The notes: generated by a model from the sequence alone, not told the origin. A DNA stretch of 32,000 nucleotides from Microcystis aeruginosa NIES-843 (GCF_000010625.1 NC_010296.1:120001-152000), one strand, 5' to 3'; counted from the stretch's first letter, positions 1,689 through 18,571 are shown. Program-made: numbers and translations.

Positions 1689-2391
1689 TATATCATAGTG
1701 AGTATGACCAGCAAAATCCCTGGCTGTGTTTTGATGAGAGTTGTCAACAATTAGTCAAAGAAACAAAAGAGAAAATACCAGCCGAACCGAGAGAACCAGA
1801 AAGGTATGACTATCAATATGAGCGTAATGGTGTAGCCAATATGTTTATGTTTTTTGAACCATTACAAGGTTGGCGACATGTAGAAGTTACACAACAAAGG
1901 ACGGCGAGCGATTATGCACACCAAATGAAATATTTGGTTGATGAGCGTTATCCGGATGCCCAGAAAATTAGAGTAATTCAAGACAACTTAAATACTCATG
2001 TAAAAGCCTCATTATATAAAGCCTTTGAACCGGAAGAGGCCAAGAGAATTTTAGATAAACTCGAATTTCATTACACTCCCAAACATGGCAGCTGGTTAAA
2101 TATGGCAGAAATTGAGTTGAGCGTTTTGAATCGTCAATGTCTCGAGCGTCGTATCCCAGACATGGATAGTTTAAAACAAGAAATTAAGGCATGGGAAGAA
2201 AATCGAAATGAAAAGTCAAATTCAGTTGACTGGAGATTTACTACTGCTGATGCTCGTATTAAATTAAAAAAACTCTATCCCTCAATTCAAACTTGACAGA
2301 CTAGTAGATTCAAGAATAGATAATTAAGTTTGTCAGCAAAAAATTAAGTAAGTCAACTCACTAAAATTCAGTAATCTAAGGATTTACGCTC

Positions 2392-3021
2392 ATGGCGATA
2401 CAAGACGATGCGAATAAACAGTTGGGATCACTCCCTTTTGGTAATATCATTGGTGGGCCTTTGGTGGCGGCGATTGAAGCCCAAGCAAAAGCTGCAAGAT
2501 CTTCAGTTGATTTTATCCAATCAGTTGCTTATAAGCCGCTCGCAGTAGGACAGGACGGAACGACCGATCCCAATGCAGTAAGAGAACTTCAAACAGTTGA
2601 ATTCGTATATGAGAGTGGTGACAAAAACGTAAAACTAAGCGTTCCATTACTGTCGATTGTACCGATTCCGTATATCCGCATTGATGATATGACAATCCAG
2701 TTCAAAGCAAATATTAGTGCTGAGACGGCCTCACAAGACACAACTACAACTGGAACAAATACCAATGTCAATGCAAACGTGACTGGGAGATATGGATGGG
2801 GGCCAGCGAAGGTTGAAGCAAGTTTTAATGCCTCCTACTCCGCTAAGAAAGACAGCACTTCTGCTGCAAATTCTAAGTATTCCGTTGAATACACTATGGA
2901 TATTTATATCCACGCCGTTCAGGATGATATGCCAGGTGGAATGGTTGAGGTTTTAAAGATCCTCAAAGAGAGCATTAAGGGAATACCTCCAAAAACGGAT
3001 GAAACAACACCTACCTCATAA
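2392..3021 (+). CDS. Hypothetical protein, paralog 1 of a three-gene family (may be DUF2589-like; recalled from memory, unverified)
   Basis: 209-aa ORF with an ATG start. Shares with the 3822 gene an N-terminal IIG(G/A)PL(V/L)A...AQ..A....FIQ helix motif, a central VPLLSIVPIPYIRIDDMTIQF strand motif and a C-terminal ..AVQDDMPGGM..VL motif. Has a Thr/Asn-rich low-complexity middle. Confidence 0.75.
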   Translation: MAIQDDANKQLGSLPFGNIIGGPLVAAIEAQAKAARSSVDFIQSVAYKPLAVGQDGTTDPNAVRELQTVEFVYESGDKNVKLSVPLLSIVPIPYIRIDDMTIQFKANISAETASQDTTTTGTNTNVNANVTGRYGWGPAKVEASFNASYSAKKDSTSAANSKYSVEYTMDIYIHAVQDDMPGGMVEVLKILKESIKGIPPKTDETTPTS

Positions 3022-3218
3022 TAGCTAACCTATATCCACGTTTGAACTTGATTTAGGTGAAAATGAGGGAACCGAACTGTAATAAATTACGCGTATTCGG
3101 TAGGTGGGCAGACTTATTTTTTTGTGAGGCTAAACTGAGTGCAGATTTTCAAATTTTAAGCGTCATAGTCTTAGTCACGCCCATCTAGATTTATCAGGAA
3201 AACTATCTTAGGACTCAT

Positions 3219-3779
3219 ATGGCTAAATTAAACCAAGTCATCGGCGCGATTCTCACTGAGATTACTAAAGCTCAGGCTACTTCGGATGCTTATTTACGGG
3301 ATTTAAAGGCTTCCTACCGAGAAAATCCCTTTCTGAAATTGCTTTCTGTTCCTCGAATAGAAGTCAGAGATGTCACGGTCGATCTGAAGTTTGCTATTCT
3401 TACTGGAGAGGCATTACCAAGTGGCAAAGTTGTAATCTACGCGGATGGGAGTTACCAAGGAGCCAGTCAAGAACTTGCTGAGGGGAACTACGATATAAAC
3501 GATTTGACGATTGGCAATGATACCTTGAGTTCTTTAAAAATACCACAAGGAATAAAGGTAACGGTTTACGAACATAGAGGGTTTAGTGGCCGCTCTAAGG
3601 TATTTGTTGAGGATACGCCCTGGGTCGGCGATGATTTCAATGATCTGACCTCTTCAATCAAAGTTGAAAAAATTTCGATTGACTCAATGGATATAGAAGT
3701 AAACACAGATTATCTTGAAAAGTTATCCGAAACTGCTATTTCATCAATTTCTATTCAACTAGATGTGGCAAGCACTTAA
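3219..3779 (+). CDS. Hypothetical protein, divergent paralog 2 with an inserted beta-gamma-crystallin domain
   Basis: 186-aa ORF. The N-terminus LNQVIGAILTEITKAQA and the strand LSVPRIEVRDVTVDLKFAI parallel the paralog motifs. Residues ~69-151 carry two Greek-key signatures (YADGSYQG, YEHRGFSG) and two N/D-N/D-x-x-S/T-S Ca-binding motifs (NDTLSS, NDLTSS). Confidence 0.75.
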   Translation: MAKLNQVIGAILTEITKAQATSDAYLRDLKASYRENPFLKLLSVPRIEVRDVTVDLKFAILTGEALPSGKVVIYADGSYQGASQELAEGNYDINDLTIGNDTLSSLKIPQGIKVTVYEHRGFSGRSKVFVEDTPWVGDDFNDLTSSIKVEKISIDSMDIEVNTDYLEKLSETAISSISIQLDVAST

Positions 3780-4062
3780 GGAAATTCATGTTTAATTGTA
3801 AACAGTTTTGGGCGTTACACCATGTCTGATATTACAGATGTACCTCTCTATCAAATTATTGGCGCACCCTTGCTGGCACTCGTGCAAGGTGAAACGCAAG
3901 CCGCACAGGCCACTGCTCGATTTATTCAGGAGATTGGCTTTGAGACTTCTCCTGATGAGCCGTTACAGTTTGGCAGGTTAAAGACCCTTACCTTTCGCTA
4001 TAGCAAAATAAGCGTAGGAGGAACGATTACTGAATTAGAAGTAGAAATTCCTGTTTTATCAA

Positions 4063-6136
4063 CCCACATTCCGCACCCTAAGTGTCACAACGTCTCAAAA
4101 GAGGAAGGGGCGCGAGTCAAAATACTTATCTAGAGGAGTGAGTTGGCGGCAAGCTGCCGGCAACTAAGCCGAAAATTTCAGAGTTCCCCCGGTCATTCTC
4201 AATAAACAGTGCTTGTTGAGAATGACTAGGCAATCAGACTTAACATCTAGGGGGAGATGTTCCAGTTGCTCGCTTTGTTTTGTCACCCCTTGAAGTCAAT
4301 CCATCTGGTCAAGATAAGAGATAATATTCCTGGCAAGGTTTGGGAAAAAATCTCAAAATGTTGCGCCTCTCATCCGTTAAGTTGCTAATCTTTTGATTGT
4401 CTTGAATACGGACGAGATGAATCCCTTGAAAGCCCTGAAATATCCAGCGTAACGTCGGTCGGTCAGTTAACTTACCCAACGGATTTTTCAGTCCCGTCTC
4501 CTGCTGTTTTAAACTTAAACGAAGTTGTCTTTGACCAATAGTATAAACCAGCAGGCACAAGCCCATGAGCATGGCCATGACCTCGATTCTATGGGGAGAT
4601 TTGAGAAAGACACTGTGGGCAAAAAAGCAGGGGTCTTTGAGAAAAGAAAATCCTCTTTCCGGAGCTTGTTGCCCTTTATATTTTTTGAGTATATCCTCAC
4701 TGCTTAATCGTTGTTTCTCCAAATCGTTAGTTGCTAAAACGAATCGTCCTGCTCGTTTCTTTAGCCTCTCAATGGCGGTCAAATTCAACTCTAATTCGGC
4801 TTGAACTTGATAGCTTTGAGAGGGTAAATCGTCTTTTGATTTGAGTTTTGACCCCTGGGACTCAGGCGGAATGAGATTGACTTTAATCTCCGTTAACTGA
4901 TGAGATTTTAAGGAGTCAGATAATCCTTTGGCTATCGCCAACGCCACCGCTCTATTCTCAAATTCTCTTCGGGATAGTTGCCGGATTTTTTCTTGGGCAG
5001 AATTCTTTTCCTGCTCGATTTTTTTCTCTAATTTTTTCAAGTCTGATTCTTGTCTAGCTTGACTTTCAACTAGCAACCATCTTTGTTCTATCCCCCCATA
5101 GTTAGAGATGGTTTCCCGCCAGGAATAACCCGGTATTTCTGAATCGGTTAACTCTTTTTCTGAGATGCTATCAACCAACTCTTGAGCCTCTTTAATGCTT
5201 AATGGTACTCGAGACAACCAACGCATTTCTTTCATTAGTTTTAAATTCTCTTTGCTATAGAGGGCGCTATCGCCGACTATTAAACTGTCAAAGTCAACTT
5301 GTTTTTTAAATTCTCGGGCGATTTGACCAAAAACCGCTTTGTCCGCTTCATTTCCGTCCCCTACTTTCAGGAATAAAGGTACATCTCCATCCCCACTTAC
5401 GATTAAGTCAATCATAAATTGTTTTAAGTCAGGTCTTCGGTCGCGGGAGTATCCGTAGGTAATTTTTATTGGCTGTTGTCTGGTTTCAATTTCTTCTCCC
5501 ACTGCTCCTGATTTCAGGATTTCTACTGTTGGGTATTCCTTGTTATATTCTCCTTCTACTGATAGAGAAGTCGAATCTAAATGGGAGTTCTCGGTTGCTA
5601 CACCAAATTTTTTCACGGCCGCTAAACTAATCAGTAGGAAAATGACCGAAACATTAAGTTGATAAAGTTTGTCCATTACTCGACCAATTTTATCATCATT
5701 CAGGTGTTTTGGTTCGATGCCCTCTCCCAGCAGATGTTCGGTTGCTTTATCTTCAAAAAATTGAGGAAATAAATACAAGGCTCGGGAGACAAATCCCAAT
5801 CCATTCAGGATAATTGCTTTCACGACTTGCCCAGCTGTGACAATTTCTCCTCGCTCAATTGAGACTTGTTCGTTGATAATTTCAACGATTCCTATTTCAT
5901 CGATAATTCCGGCTACTAATCCCAGATGGTCTAGATTTTTGACTTCAATTTCTGTTGATTGATTCATGGTCGAACAGTCCACTCGCCTCAGTTTTCCAAC
6001 AATTCCTATTTTTTCATAATTAGGGGTCTCAAGACCCCCCTAGCGGCCACCGAGAAAACCTTCACCAGCTAGGTATTTTTACTCAAGTCTCTGGCGGGGG
6101 ACAGCTTATGTGACAGTTGAGGGTGCGGAATGTGGG
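4063..6136 (-). mobile_element. IS1634/IS4-like IS, copy 1 (2074 bp)
   Basis: Terminal inverted repeats: cccacattccgcaccct from 4063 vs agggtgcggaatgtggg ending at 6136. 7-bp direct duplication ttatcaa (4056-4062, 6137-6143). A second copy lies at 12250-15606. Confidence 0.85.
4309..5982 (-). CDS. IS1634-family-like DDE transposase (557 aa; the real start is probably the MNQSTEIEV Met at 5967)
   Basis: Long ORF filling the IS. The N-terminal LDHLGLVAGIIDEIGIVEIIN segment resembles the DUF4277-type N-terminus of IS1634 transposases. A coiled-coil middle and a C-terminal LKDPCFF...LMGLCLLVY segment follow. Hairpins at 4150-4240 lie downstream of the stop. Confidence 0.7.
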   Translation of the reverse strand: MDCSTMNQSTEIEVKNLDHLGLVAGIIDEIGIVEIINEQVSIERGEIVTAGQVVKAIILNGLGFVSRALYLFPQFFEDKATEHLLGEGIEPKHLNDDKIGRVMDKLYQLNVSVIFLLISLAAVKKFGVATENSHLDSTSLSVEGEYNKEYPTVEILKSGAVGEEIETRQQPIKITYGYSRDRRPDLKQFMIDLIVSGDGDVPLFLKVGDGNEADKAVFGQIAREFKKQVDFDSLIVGDSALYSKENLKLMKEMRWLSRVPLSIKEAQELVDSISEKELTDSEIPGYSWRETISNYGGIEQRWLLVESQARQESDLKKLEKKIEQEKNSAQEKIRQLSRREFENRAVALAIAKGLSDSLKSHQLTEIKVNLIPPESQGSKLKSKDDLPSQSYQVQAELELNLTAIERLKKRAGRFVLATNDLEKQRLSSEDILKKYKGQQAPERGFSFLKDPCFFAHSVFLKSPHRIEVMAMLMGLCLLVYTIGQRQLRLSLKQQETGLKNPLGKLTDRPTLRWIFQGFQGIHLVRIQDNQKISNLTDERRNILRFFPKPCQEYYLLS

Positions 6137-6760
6137 TTATCAATCGTGCCTATTCCGACACTTCAAATTCGTGAAGCGGAAATCGACTTTTCAGTGGAAA
6201 TCAATAGCATCGTTAAATTGGATACGCCCAATGCTGTTAGCGTTGCTGAGGTTTCTGAAGACGAGTCTTCTTCAGAAATTAAAAAAGACTCATCTTTAAA
6301 GCCAGAAATGGTGGCTTTTAGAGCAGGTTTGGCTAGACAAGATTCCAAATCAGCAATGAAGATCAATATCAAAGCAGGTCAAGCAGACACTCCTGTTGGC
6401 TTACTGACAATCTTCAGGTTATTGGATCAAGGAATTTCTAGTCGCGAAGTCAAGGATAATCAAACTCCTCCTTCTGAGGGGTCTGGATCATCGGCAACTT
6501 AGCTTTAACCTTTTAGTTCATCAAGTCCTTTTTCAAGGTGGAGAATTTATGACCGAACAACCTACTAATGGGACTTAGACAAAAAACAAATCGAGAAAAG
6601 CTTCAACTCCAATCCCCGCTTGGGATTTACTTCGAGAAGCCCAAAATCGCTGAAACCCAGATATATCAAGGAAAATCATAAATCGAGGTTAACCCTTTGT
6701 CCCGTAATGGTTTGAGCCTTTTTTGCTGACCGAAAACGCCTAAGTCCCACTAACCAAAAT

Positions 6761-6958
6761 GGTGTTCCTTGTCCCGAATGCAATTTTACGATTCCCACAA
6801 CAATGCCGATGTTGCTCTCTGGTGAGCCAATTGTTTGCCCAATGTGTGGATTAGCTTTGCACGTTGACAGGGAAAAATCGGCTGAAAGTCTCAATTTGAT
6901 TCGCAATCTGTATGAGGCTACTAAGGAGGTTGAAGAAACCAAACAGCAGTGGAGATAA
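6761..6958 (+). pseudogene. Possible small zinc-ribbon protein with no in-frame start codon
   Basis: The frame, open from 6716, reads GVPCPECNFTIPTTMPMLLSGEPIVCPMCGLALHVDREKSAESLNLIRNLYEATKEVEETKQQWR* (CxxC...CxxC). The only upstream ATG (6759) is in another frame, so this is a 1-nt frameshift relic or uses a non-canonical start. Confidence 0.25.
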
Positions 6959-7420
6959 TGTCCGAAGCTCCTTAAAGCAATCAAACTGTGTGAGTGCTAA
7001 TTATGCCCAAGTATTATGTAATTCCTATCGATAATTTTGATCAAGCCTATTTTGGCATTAGATCACTTTTGAATCCTTATAATAGGCAAGTCAACTGGTG
7101 TGCAGGAACACCGAATGTATTTGGCGGACGTGGAACAGAAGCTCGTGAAACTATATATAGGGAGACTCGCGAAGAATCTCGTTTCAAAATAGATATTGAT
7201 CAGTGTGGAGCTACTCTTCATCAGATTCATCAAAGTAATGGAATGACTTTCTATGCTATCCGAAATAGGTTTGTCTACTATCCAGATCCTTACTTTCCGG
7301 CGTTACTGGGAAATCGACCTGAGTATCAAGAATGTACTGGTGAAATCCTAAGGGTCAACTTGAACGCTGTTAATACAGACAACAGTATTTCTGCTGGTAG
7401 TTATGTTATTAAAGAATTTA

Positions 7421-8842
7421 GGCTCTTCGTTACCCTTTATGCTAAATCAACATACAAGATGCCAAGATAACATACTTCTAACCCAAAAATTCCGAAAGTT
7501 TCTAAAGCCATAGCCTCTCCGTTTTATTAGTTTAAGTTTATTGTTGATTCCTTCGACCACCCCATTCGTTGTCCTTCGCTCGAAATAACTAATTATTTCT
7601 CCAAACCAGTTTCGGATTGTTTGACAACTCTTGGTAAAAACACTGGAGGATTTTGCCAACCATTCCGAGATGGATAGCATTCCCTCTGTCGGATTCTCTG
7701 AGGTTTCATAAATCTTTCTAAATTCTTCCTTTAATTCCTGCATCTTTTTCAAATTTGGGAATTTTTCTTTGATAGCTTCTAGTTTAATTTTTTGGGGTTC
7801 CGTTAAATCTTCTTCATTTTTTAACAGGCTATATTTACTTCGCTTTAAAACTTCTAGCTTGGCTTCTTTTTCTGCTTTCTGTTTTTTATTTTTCTGCGCT
7901 TCTACGGCTCTTTTTTCTGCTCTTCTCTGTTCGTCTAACTCTTGATTAATTTGTTTCATTACATGGAATCTATCGGCGACTACTTCGGCCGATGGCATCA
8001 ATTCTTTCACCAAATTTTTATAAGGCAACCAAAGGTCTATGCTCACTTCTTCAATTTGCTCTAACACCTCTTTTCCCCAGCCCGTAAGCGTTTCTCTCAA
8101 CTCTTCTTGTGTTCGCTTCTCTAGAATAGCTATTAGTTTTCCCGTATCTAAATTTACTAAAACCGCACAGTAATTTTTTTGTCCTTTGACTAGAGCGATT
8201 TCATCAATTCCTAGTCTTTTTAATTCCGATAGGTCTGGCTCTGTAATTTCTTCGGCGATGTCCTCTATCATTCTTTGAATCTCTTCTTCCGTTACGTCAT
8301 TTATTCGACTAACATTTAAAATATCTCCTTCTTTTAATTGTTCGAGTATATTTGCGGCTAGTCTTTTCGTATAGGTTCGTTTCTTGGCGACAAAATCTAA
8401 CTCTTCGCTAAAGGGTCTCTGACAATTATCGCACTTAAATTGACGACGATTAACTTGTAGGTATACTGGTTGACCTGAGATTGGTAAATCTTTGACTAAA
8501 TGTCGATGATTTTGGTGGAGTTTATCGCTCTCTAACCCACAACGAGGACAGGTTGCTTTTTGATTTTTCGATTCGATTCGGCAAACTATACCGATATTTT
8601 CTAGGTGTAGATAGCCTTGAATACAGGTTCCTTTTAGGTTCAAAAATTTGTCAAGTATCATAAGTAAAATAATCTCGTTTTTGGCTATTATATCAAATCT
8701 TAACTCAATTGTCTATCTTTTGGTATTAACCTGTTTGTGCCTTAAGTCCTTCCCTGTATGGATTTCAGCTACTTTTGAGCGTAGGCGCTCTCATCGAATT
8801 TTATTTTAAGTTAATTATTTGCATAACAATTCCCGAAGAGCC
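7421..8842 (-). mobile_element. ISL3-family IS, copy 1 (1422 bp)
   Basis: Ends: ggctcttcg...tatgc at 7421 vs the reverse complement of ...cgaagagcc at 8842. 8-bp direct duplication agaattta (7413-7420, 8843-8850). A second copy of identical length lies at 17150-18571. Confidence 0.9.
7447..8661 (-). CDS. ISL3-family transposase (404 aa)
   Basis: N-terminal zinc finger CPRCG...CDNC, then ADRFHVMKQIN and a C-terminal TNGVVEGINNKLKLIKRRGYGFRNFRNF, as in IS204/IS1001/IS1096/IS1165-type (ISL3) transposases. Confidence 0.9.
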   Translation of the reverse strand: MILDKFLNLKGTCIQGYLHLENIGIVCRIESKNQKATCPRCGLESDKLHQNHRHLVKDLPISGQPVYLQVNRRQFKCDNCQRPFSEELDFVAKKRTYTKRLAANILEQLKEGDILNVSRINDVTEEEIQRMIEDIAEEITEPDLSELKRLGIDEIALVKGQKNYCAVLVNLDTGKLIAILEKRTQEELRETLTGWGKEVLEQIEEVSIDLWLPYKNLVKELMPSAEVVADRFHVMKQINQELDEQRRAEKRAVEAQKNKKQKAEKEAKLEVLKRSKYSLLKNEEDLTEPQKIKLEAIKEKFPNLKKMQELKEEFRKIYETSENPTEGMLSISEWLAKSSSVFTKSCQTIRNWFGEIISYFERRTTNGVVEGINNKLKLIKRRGYGFRNFRNFWVRSMLSWHLVC

Positions 8843-17149: not shown

Positions 17150-18571
17150 GGCTCTTCGTTACCCTTTATGCTAAATCAACATACAAGATGCCAAGATAAC
17201 ATACTTCTAACCCAAAAATTCCGAAAGTTTCTAAAGCCATAGCCTCTCCGTTTTATTAGTTTAAGTTTATTGTTGATTCCTTCGACCACCCCATTCGTTG
17301 TCCTTCGCTCGAAATAACTAATTATTTCTCCAAACCAGTTTCGGATTGTTTGACAACTCTTGGTAAAAACACTGGAGGATTTTGCCAACCATTCCGAGAT
17401 GGATAGCATTCCCTCTGTCGGATTCTCTGAGGTTTCATAAATCTTTCTAAATTCTTCCTTTAATTCCTGCATCTTTTTCAAATTTGGGAATTTTTCTTTG
17501 ATAGCTTCTAGTTTAATTTTTTGGGGTTCCGTTAAATCTTCTTCATTTTTTAACAGGCTATATTTACTTCGCTTTAAAACTTCTAGCTTGGCTTCTTTTT
17601 CTGCTTTCTGTTTTTTATTTTTCTGCGCTTCTACGGCTCTTTTTTCTGCTCTTCTCTGTTCGTCTAACTCTTGATTAATTTGTTTCATTACATGGAATCT
17701 ATCGGCGACTACTTCGGCCGATGGCATCAATTCTTTCACCAAATTTTTATAAGGCAACCAAAGGTCTATGCTCACTTCTTCAATTTGCTCTAACACCTCT
17801 TTTCCCCAGCCCGTAAGCGTTTCTCTCAACTCTTCTTGTGTTCGCTTCTCTAGAATAGCTATTAGTTTTCCCGTATCTAAATTTACTAAAACCGCACAGT
17901 AATTTTTTTGTCCTTTGACTAGAGCGATTTCATCAATTCCTAGTCTTTTTAATTCCGATAGGTCTGGCTCTGTAATTTCTTCGGCGATGTCCTCTATCAT
18001 TCTTTGAATCTCTTCTTCCGTTACGTCATTTATTCGACTAACATTTAAAATATCTCCTTCTTTTAATTGTTCGAGTATATTTGCGGCTAGTCTTTTCGTA
18101 TAGGTTCGTTTCTTGGCGACAAAATCTAACTCTTCGCTAAAGGGTCTCTGACAATTATCGCACTTAAATTGACGACGATTAACTTGTAGGTATACTGGTT
18201 GACCTGAGATTGGTAAATCTTTGACTAAATGTCGATGATTTTGGTGGAGTTTATCGCTCTCTAACCCACAACGAGGACAGGTTGCTTTTTGATTTTTCGA
18301 TTCGATTCGGCAAACTATACCGATATTTTCTAGGTGTAGATAGCCTTGAATACAGGTTCCTTTTAGGTTCAAAAATTTGTCAAGTATCATAAGTAAAATA
18401 ATCTCGTTTTTGGCTATTATATCAAATCTTAACTCAATTGTCTATCTTTTGGTATTAACCTGTTTGTGCCTTAAGTCCTTCCCTGTATGGATTTCAGCTA
18501 CTTTTGAGCGTAGGCGCTCTCATCGAATTTTATTTTAAGTTAATTATTTGCATAACAATTCCCGAAGAGCC
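17150..18571 (-). mobile_element. ISL3-family IS, copy 2 (1422 bp)
   Basis: Same ends and length as copy 1. Has its own 8-bp duplication tttttatt (17142-17149, 18572-18579). Confidence 0.9.
17176..18390 (-). CDS. ISL3-family transposase (404 aa, identical to the 7447-8661 product)
   Basis: The ORF-track translation is identical, residue for residue, to that of copy 1. Confidence 0.9.
   Translation of the reverse strand: MILDKFLNLKGTCIQGYLHLENIGIVCRIESKNQKATCPRCGLESDKLHQNHRHLVKDLPISGQPVYLQVNRRQFKCDNCQRPFSEELDFVAKKRTYTKRLAANILEQLKEGDILNVSRINDVTEEEIQRMIEDIAEEITEPDLSELKRLGIDEIALVKGQKNYCAVLVNLDTGKLIAILEKRTQEELRETLTGWGKEVLEQIEEVSIDLWLPYKNLVKELMPSAEVVADRFHVMKQINQELDEQRRAEKRAVEAQKNKKQKAEKEAKLEVLKRSKYSLLKNEEDLTEPQKIKLEAIKEKFPNLKKMQELKEEFRKIYETSENPTEGMLSISEWLAKSSSVFTKSCQTIRNWFGEIISYFERRTTNGVVEGINNKLKLIKRRGYGFRNFRNFWVRSMLSWHLVC

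Follow-up and report, generated by a model that had tools for sequence, protein, structure and literature searches.

A complete βγ-crystallin domain inserted into the middle protein of a DUF2589 operon in Microcystis aeruginosa NIES-843

The analysis presented here concerns a stretch of 32,000 nucleotides from Microcystis aeruginosa NIES-843 (NC_010296.1:120001-152000), called the window in the following, and in particular the gene g2 at 3219..3779 on the plus strand. This gene was delimited as an open reading frame and by its orthologues; it codes for a protein of 186 amino acids and is the middle gene of an operon in which it is flanked by two genes for DUF2589 proteins, g1 and g3. The g2 protein is a small scaffold interrupted by a complete βγ-crystallin domain. 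The crystallin is a true domain insertion, and the slot in which it sits is empty in a Microcoleus homologue and filled with unrelated domains in others. Much work has been done on βγ-crystallins as Ca2+-binding modules which stand alone or follow one another in series. A preliminary description, made from the sequence of the window, had pointed to the domain and stated that its author was not aware of a crystallin embedded in this kind of protein; the literature that we searched likewise contains no paper on this architecture and no description of a βγ-crystallin inserted inside a small scaffold protein.

The crystallin occupies 3417..3671 on the plus strand (residues 67-151) and consists of two Greek keys. 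Using the definitions of the Greek-key and Ca-binding motifs given in PMC3551895, the first Greek key contains the signature YADGSYQG (3438..3461, residues 74-81) and the Ca motif NDTLSS (3516..3533, residues 100-105), and the second contains the signature YEHRGFSG (3567..3590, residues 117-124) and the Ca motif NDLTSS (3639..3656, residues 141-146). All four are found where the preliminary description had placed them. The Crystall profile of Pfam (PF00030) gives 30.4 bits with the whole g2 protein, above the gathering cut-off of 25, and 33.5 bits when nucleotides 3423-3671 are scanned alone. A phmmer search against the PDB sequences found clostrillin (E=3.6e-18), with residues 67-151 of g2 aligned to residues 2-89 of the chain and with both signatures and both Ca motifs in register; the corresponding clostrillin sequences are, in the order given above, YEDINYGG, NDWMSS, YENDNFTG and NDKMSS. 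The domain had been proposed to span residues ~69-151, and of this the C-terminal end stands, while the alignment moves the start to residue 67, which makes the domain two residues wider.

The fold was predicted with AlphaFold2 (AF2) using 24 orthologues. The model has a predicted local distance difference test score (pLDDT) of 78-88 over residues 70-150 and is a double Greek-key β-sandwich. In a Foldseek search of the PDB it matched clostrillin, flavollin and the N-domain of Protein S (entries 3i9h, 3hzb and 1nps) over 84-87 aligned columns, with template modelling (TM) scores of 0.81-0.86 and a root-mean-square deviation (rmsd) of 1.9 Å. By its profile score, its two Y/F-x-x-x-x-Y/F-x-G signatures and its predicted fold the insert belongs to the βγ-crystallin superfamily, and by sequence, with one N/D-N/D-x-x-S/T-S motif in each Greek key, to the Ca2+-binding microbial βγ-crystallins. 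Nucleotides 3417-3671 thus code for a complete single βγ-crystallin domain of the clostrillin/Protein S type with two canonical Ca-motif sequences, as had been claimed. It should be noted that, as a domain, the insert is an ordinary additional microbial βγ-crystallin. It is also within reach of routine annotation, since one Okeania orthologue is named 'beta/gamma crystallin-related protein' by NCBI.

The closest structural comparison is with clostrillin from Clostridium beijerinckii (PDB 3i9h and 3so1), to which the insert is 44-46% identical over the 85-residue domain, and with single-domain microbial βγ-crystallins in general it shares the same double Greek key (TM 0.83-0.86 and rmsd 1.9 Å to clostrillin). 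The first Ca motif of vibrillin is identical to the NDTLSS of g2 (PMC3551895). In clostrillin, Protein S, flavollin, hahellin and vibrillin the domains stand alone, occur in tandem, or form terminal or serial parts of large proteins, whereas the g2 domain, for which Ca2+ binding is predicted, is inserted inside a scaffold of ~100 amino acids between its N- and C-terminal halves.

The N-terminal part of this scaffold (3219..3416, residues 1-66) was delimited by profile search and is composed of a helix, IGxxLxxIxxAQ, and a strand, LSVPRIEVRDVTVDLKFAI. The C-terminal part (3672..3779, residues 152-186 and the stop codon) ends with MDIEVNTDYLEKLSETAISSISIQLDVAST and is kept in all insert variants. 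The conserved parts are the N-terminal helix and strand (residues 1-62) and the C-terminal segment (residues ~153-186), and the slot between them is bounded by an alternating β-strand at residues 44-61 and by the segment at residues ~156-183. That the crystallin was truly inserted between the conserved strand and the C-terminal segment, as first proposed from the window sequence, follows from the existence of an insert-less homologue, from other inserts at the same site, from sharp breakpoints in the DNA and from the variable length of the family. The insert-less homologue is a Microcoleus protein of 107 amino acids (P0159) encoded at the equivalent operon position; its N-terminal 61 and C-terminal ~33 scaffold residues are joined by a linker of 14 residues. 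Three other proteins with the same scaffold (P0029, P0030 and P0035) have at the same point an unrelated insert of about 110 amino acids with no Pfam match, a fourth (P0038) has an unrelated insert of about 125 amino acids, and the middle gene of Musicola has a helical centre of about 140 amino acids at the insert site. P0029 had no significant match among the PDB sequences.

The breakpoints were seen by comparing the window with a contig of a metagenome-assembled genome (MAG) from Lake Erken (L011). The DNA identity is 92.6% at 2846-3400, no homology is detectable at 3401-3680, and from 3681 the identity is 81%. The breakpoints at 3400/3401 and 3680/3681 bracket the crystallin, and the difference between the two loci is a cassette replacement around it in near-identical scaffolds. 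At another locus (L007) the DNA homology to the window resumes at 3639, that is within the second Ca motif. Proteins of the P0029 type retain a remnant, 'NDVTASSK', and their ancestor therefore probably carried a crystallin.

What fills the slot in the wider family is very diverse. When 156 family members were grouped by BLAST links between their central regions, at least 36 unlinked groups resulted, and in 22 of these members the region is shorter than 40 amino acids. A Pfam scan of 150 representatives found Crystall in 4, an OAA-family lectin in 4 and a sub-threshold DUF2589 match in 1. The OAA-family lectins (OAA, MBHA, PFA, BOA; PF17882) bind high-mannose glycans, and thus differ from the crystallin in fold and in ligand; no lectin is present in the window gene. 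One protein (P0171), encoded in the same operon, is the scaffold with an OAA lectin in the slot. Another (P0161, 342 amino acids, from a Logan contig) carries the lectin at residues 113-242, nested in the first Greek key of a crystallin at the loop of Ca motif 1, so that a lectin lies within a crystallin which lies within the g2 scaffold. This lectin matches OAA across its full 130 residues with E about 1e-56. The searched literature has no description of slot exchange with lectins or other domains, nor of a lectin nested in a crystallin.

Outside the cyanobacteria the commonest content of the slot is a helical region of 130-170 amino acids with no Pfam match. Among the GTDB species representatives an Okeania MAG and the Erken MAG, the latter with the swapped variant, were the only ones to give full-length matches, and close relatives come from freshwater cyanobacterial MAGs, including Snowella. 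The crystallin-type g2 is rare and largely cyanobacterial.

The preliminary description had called the host protein a family member. This is correct in the sense that g2 belongs to a conserved family of middle genes of its own, but not in the sense of membership of Pfam DUF2589 (PF11655), for which g2, at 10.9 bits (E=0.58), stays short of the cut-off of 23 and matches over residues 35-60 only. Other members of the g2 family match the same profile with E=1.8e-4 to 0.03, all below threshold. A profile of the N-terminal 63 residues found 765 cluster representatives at E<=1e-3 among 1.84 billion; among the 150 matches listed, the lengths range from 78 to 465 amino acids and most matches start at residue 1-3. 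The motif LxxLPExAISSIxI of the C-terminal scaffold also recurs in the wider family. Comparison of g2 with the g1 family by hhalign gave E=5.6e-4, 8e-4 and 2e-3 with probabilities of 14-30% over ~40 residues, and the region was constant: the g2 strand LLSVPRxEIxxVTIDLKFAI was aligned with the g1 strand PLLtIVPIPyIRIDdMtIqFKAnI.

Two g2 homologues have precomputed matches, weak or faint, to PF27375 'AF_0414', and g2 resembles this family both in having the N-terminal scaffold of ~62 amino acids at the start of the protein and in its position between two DUF2589 genes, which was found in 11 of the 11 loci examined. With the DUF2589 proteins encoded on either side it appears to share a strand motif (PLLxIVPIPxIxIxxxxIxFK aligned to LLSVPRxEIxxVTIDLKF), yet it stays under the DUF2589 threshold itself. 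The cyanobacterial g2 subclade differs from the AF_0414 family in lacking the usual helical centre of ~140 amino acids and the RNYVW...RRLIPE tail, and it has globular β-domains instead. From these comparisons g2 is probably a highly diverged paralogue of DUF2589 rather than a DUF2589 member.

The nearest relatives of the insert outside g2 are found in cyanobacterial multi-crystallin or modular proteins at 63-69% identity (P0011, P0031-34), which suggests that the crystallin may have been captured from the local cyanobacterial domain pool. One account would be that it is a passenger, picked up by illegitimate recombination from such a protein and having no role of its own in a decaying operon. 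The identity of these relatives agrees with this, as does the state of the operon in the window, where it is broken by an insertion sequence (IS) and by a miniature inverted-repeat transposable element (MITE). We nevertheless consider the passenger account very improbable. Against two close orthologues (dS 0.3-0.5) the crystallin segment has dN/dS 0.08-0.21, which is as low as in the scaffold segments (0.04-0.26), and the insert is thus maintained by purifying selection. The architecture is retained by orthologues at 55-92% identity to g2, in more than 20 orthologue clusters which include Okeania, Hydrocoleum and a Chroococcales MAG, and the gene is also present in operons which are intact (L048 and L002).

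The interpretation towards which we lean, if only slightly, is that g1, g2 and g3 form a hetero-oligomer in which g2 serves as an exchangeable subunit for display, its slot presenting a module for binding or targeting, here a Ca2+-stabilised βγ-crystallin. It is envisaged that the two scaffold segments of g2 pair and dock the protein into a complex with the two DUF2589 paralogues, while the slot would project the module outwards. The Ca2+ sites would mainly stabilise the fold at micromolar to millimolar Ca2+, levels expected once the protein is released or otherwise outside the cytoplasm, and the crystallin would give the assembly its specificity for a surface, a glycan or a partner rather than act as a Ca2+ switch. 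A heteromer is proposed because g1, g2 and g3 invariably lie side by side in one orientation, in cyanobacteria as well as in Musicola, Geoalkalibacter and Reichenbachiella. A binding module is proposed because an OAA lectin occupies the same slot in P0171, because a lectin is nested in the crystallin of P0161, and because some g1 homologues, in Bacteroidota and Nostoc, have Big_1 or invasin-type immunoglobulin-like (Ig-like) domains at the C-terminus. The cargo domains, namely lectin, Ca-binding crystallin and Ig-like, would together suggest recognition of surfaces or glycans. For the g2 scaffold and for g1 AF2 gave monomer models of low confidence (pLDDT about 50), which is compatible with both being obligate parts of an oligomer.

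Several points weigh against the display interpretation. Most family members have a helical centre with no binding-domain signature, and the display of binding modules may hold only for the cyanobacterial subclade. The statistics that tie g2 to DUF2589 are weak, with E about 5e-4 to 2e-3 and a probability of 14-30%. Neither the literature nor searches of the PDB sequences gave an experiment or a structure for a DUF2589 or AF_0414-type protein, and we infer the formation of the heteromer, its cellular location and its ligand. No obvious signal peptide or transmembrane segment was seen by eye in g1-g3, so that an extracellular role needs lysis or an uncharacterised export route. Finally, g3 and the zinc-ribbon gene which follows it are disrupted in the window, and the domain therefore cannot do the proposed job in this strain.

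The preliminary description had suggested that the insert could make the module Ca-responsive. In this role of a Ca2+ switch, Ca2+ bound at the two sites would make the insert rigid and so control whether the complex of g1, g2 and g3 folds or assembles. The window and the closest orthologues have the canonical form of both motifs, and the second is canonical in 17 of the 21 crystallin-bearing orthologues. Some microbial βγ-crystallins, reportedly hahellin among them, fold only when Ca2+ is bound, and intrinsically unstructured cases are mentioned in PMC3551895. If the insert sits on the end of a hairpin of the scaffold, the order of the domain would be coupled to the geometry of the scaffold. 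However, motif 1 is canonical in only 12 of the 21, the other 9 having degenerate variants (GG, GD, DK, NQ) in a domain which is otherwise kept; the corresponding loop in P0161 has been replaced by a lectin of 130 amino acids, and the slot also works empty or with domains which do not bind Ca2+. An influence of Ca2+ on domain association is not known in other βγ-crystallins, and Ca affinities of 4-100 µM are reported for such domains (PMC3551895). Taken together we find the switch rather unlikely.

The intact operon consists of a DUF2589 gene (g1), g2, a second DUF2589 gene (g3), a gene for a zinc-ribbon protein of 74 amino acids and a variable fifth gene. It has been seen in Okeania, in several cyanobacterial metagenome contigs, and in Musicola paradisiaca, Geoalkalibacter and Reichenbachiella, and judged by sequence it spans cyanobacteria, Proteobacteria and Bacteroidota, with the zinc-ribbon gene following the trio in all bacterial phyla examined. 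This five-gene arrangement is not described in the searched literature. In Archaeoglobus fulgidus the operon is possibly present as well (AF0414-AF0417): a transcriptome study calls these four 'DUF2589 related genes' and remarks on their up-regulation during growth on lactate (PMC3949148). On the function of DUF2589 the searched literature gave nothing besides this remark. The significance of the locus lies in its being an uncharacterised operon, found across bacterial phyla, in which a socket in the middle subunit is filled with varied domains which are swapped between near-identical scaffolds. The contents of the slot offer a concrete handle on the function of DUF2589, and the g2 socket may be a natural scaffold for domain display.

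The fifth gene differs from locus to locus. It codes for a YopT-like Peptidase_C58 protein (E=2.1e-8) at L007:3493-4116 and for a Peptidase_C39 protein (E=3.6e-6) at L008:9358-9912; the genes at L002:11515-12153 and L048:1582-2139 belong to one family with the motif 'WGVCGFTSC' and no Pfam match, and those of Musicola (L005:12242-13066) and of the window (6994-7470) code for unrelated proteins. The operon might be imagined as an intracellular sensor for defence or abortive infection in which the g2 centre recognises a component of the invader and the DUF2589 proteins, once activated by the cysteine peptidase of the fifth gene, damage the membrane; the crystallin would then be one sensor head among many. 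The two peptidase families would fit this scheme, and so would the hypervariable g2 centre, cassette-swapped between near-identical scaffolds, the conserved amphipathic hairpin in g1, and neighbourhoods with toxin-antitoxin genes, a NACHT/NB-ARC gene and transposases. Yet these neighbourhoods are not consistently defence islands, and a PADLOC scan of nine operon proteins gave nothing at E<0.009, its only two hits being weak and covering other proteins. Furthermore, lectin, βγ-crystallin and Big_1 domains typify extracellular binding and not cytoplasmic sensing, and cytoplasmic Ca2+ is far below the affinities cited above. We regard a defence sensor as unlikely. Scans of the operon proteins with PADLOC, NCBIfam and PHROGs gave only weak zinc-ribbon noise.

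The hairpin just mentioned belongs to g1 (2392..3021, plus strand), the first gene of the operon, which codes for a canonical DUF2589 protein of 209 amino acids (Pfam E=1.6e-24 over the full profile 1-154) that is 45-55% identical to homologues in Proteobacteria, Bacteroidota and Planctomycetota. The column statistics of 53 sequences show a long alternating strand at 97-110 and a Ser/Thr tract at 111-124, then a perfectly alternating amphipathic hairpin at 126-151 with aromatic residues at the turn, followed by KKDS and a Ser/Thr tract at 152-161 and a second long alternating strand at 163-176. In the hhalign register the slot of g2 starts exactly where the first Ser/Thr tract of g1 starts. 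The AF2 monomer of g1, made from an alignment of 53 sequences, has a pLDDT of 49 and leaves the hairpin region disordered; neither g1 alone nor the g1 profile found anything below E=0.88 among the PDB sequences.

As a pattern in sequence, the alternating hairpin with its Ser/Thr tracts resembles the loops with which pore formers of the aerolysin type insert. It may be speculated that the DUF2589 trio is a multi-component complex which is membrane-active, like a β-barrel pore, or assembles on surfaces, with the g1 hairpin as the active part, g2 as a paralogue whose hairpin tip has turned into a plug-in socket for targeting domains (βγ-crystallin, OAA lectin and others), and the zinc-ribbon protein and the variable cysteine peptidase as accessory or activating factors. 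We hold this proposal to be unlikely; the hairpin is a pattern in sequence (columns 111-161, conserved in the 53 sequences). If the proposal were true, bacteria would have in this operon an equivalent of pore formers armed with crystallins, such as βγ-CAT, but with specificity exchangeable by cassette. βγ-CAT of Bombina maxima is said to be a non-lens βγ-crystallin fused to an aerolysin-like module and complexed with a trefoil factor. Here too a crystallin is joined to another module in a multi-subunit complex, and βγ-CAT might be a functional analogue provided that DUF2589 is membrane-active, but it is eukaryotic, its crystallins are N-terminal and not inserted, and it has no sequence relation to DUF2589.

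In the window the operon is damaged downstream of g2. The 5' part of g3 (3822..4062, plus strand) matches DUF2589 with E=2.7e-6 over profile positions 1-71, and the homology to intact orthologues ends at 4060. An IS of 2074 bp follows on the minus strand (4063..6136), with a transposase of the DUF4277 and DDE_Tnp_1 type at 4309..5982. It is bounded by terminal inverted repeats, CCCACATTCCGCA / TGCGGAATGTGGG, and its 7-bp target, TTATCAA, is duplicated at 4056-4062 and 6137-6143. The 3' part of g3 (6137..6502, plus strand; E=7.5e-9) continues at profile positions 70-151. Excision of the element and one copy of the target in silico gives an open g3 frame of 199 amino acids which reads ...EIPVLSIVPIPTLQ... 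The zinc-ribbon gene (6549..6958, plus strand) is split by a 185-bp MITE-like insert; the element lies at about 6561-6753 with inverted repeats at 6566-6578 and 6740-6752, and its removal restores MTEQPTNQNGVPCPECNF..., matching the intact orthologues. Among themselves the intact orthologues of 74 amino acids have 73-82% identity, and the remnant of 51 amino acids in the window has 75-78% identity to them. Because both genes are split by mobile elements, the operon is probably inactive in this genome. The position of the fifth gene is occupied by an open reading frame of 158 amino acids with no family match (6994..7470, plus strand), which runs into an ISL3 element and is unrelated to the fifth genes of other loci.

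A number of minor observations were made on the operon proteins. Eight g1 homologues (P0103, P0122, P0128-P0131, P0140 and P0156, from Bacteroidota, Rhodothermaceae, Planctomycetota and Nostoc) have a C-terminal extension of about 100 amino acids, and several of these extensions have precomputed matches to Big_1 or Invasin_D3. The g3 proteins of two close relatives, at L011:1045-1872 and L047:1607-2434, have 275 amino acids against the usual about 197-199, the extra ~80-100 lying between the N-terminal helix and the first strand, so that g3 also tolerates insertions, at a different loop. The idea that the N-terminus of g1 (...LIGG|P) could be a double-glycine leader for a C39-type fifth gene was set aside: neither g2 nor g3 conserves the Gly-Gly, the Pro after it never varies, and at some loci the fifth gene codes for something other than a C39 peptidase.

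As to expression and transfer, a scan of nucleotides 2250-4150 for promoters and terminators found sites no more frequent than in shuffled sequences, and megablast of nucleotides 2300-4300 against plasmids gave no match. In Musicola paradisiaca Ech703 the operon is directly preceded (L005:8251-9866) by a gene for a sigma-54-activator-type AAA protein with an AraC helix-turn-helix (HTH) domain and by a second AraC-type gene; it is possible that these are dedicated regulators of the operon. Toxin-antitoxin genes (BrnT/BrnA, PemK, ParE, PhdYeFM) lie near the operon at L048, L049 and L002, and in the window a gene for a PemK/MazF-type toxin is found at 10417-10788 on the minus strand.

The region of the window is very rich in mobile elements. 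At its left end, 122-2296, there is a run of IS630-type fragments (HTH, HTH, DDE_3, DDE_3), and a partial second copy of the type of transposase found in g3 is present at 14554..15453. Two transposase genes of the ISL3 family, at 7447-8661 and 17176-18390, have identical Pfam scores and are probably identical copies.

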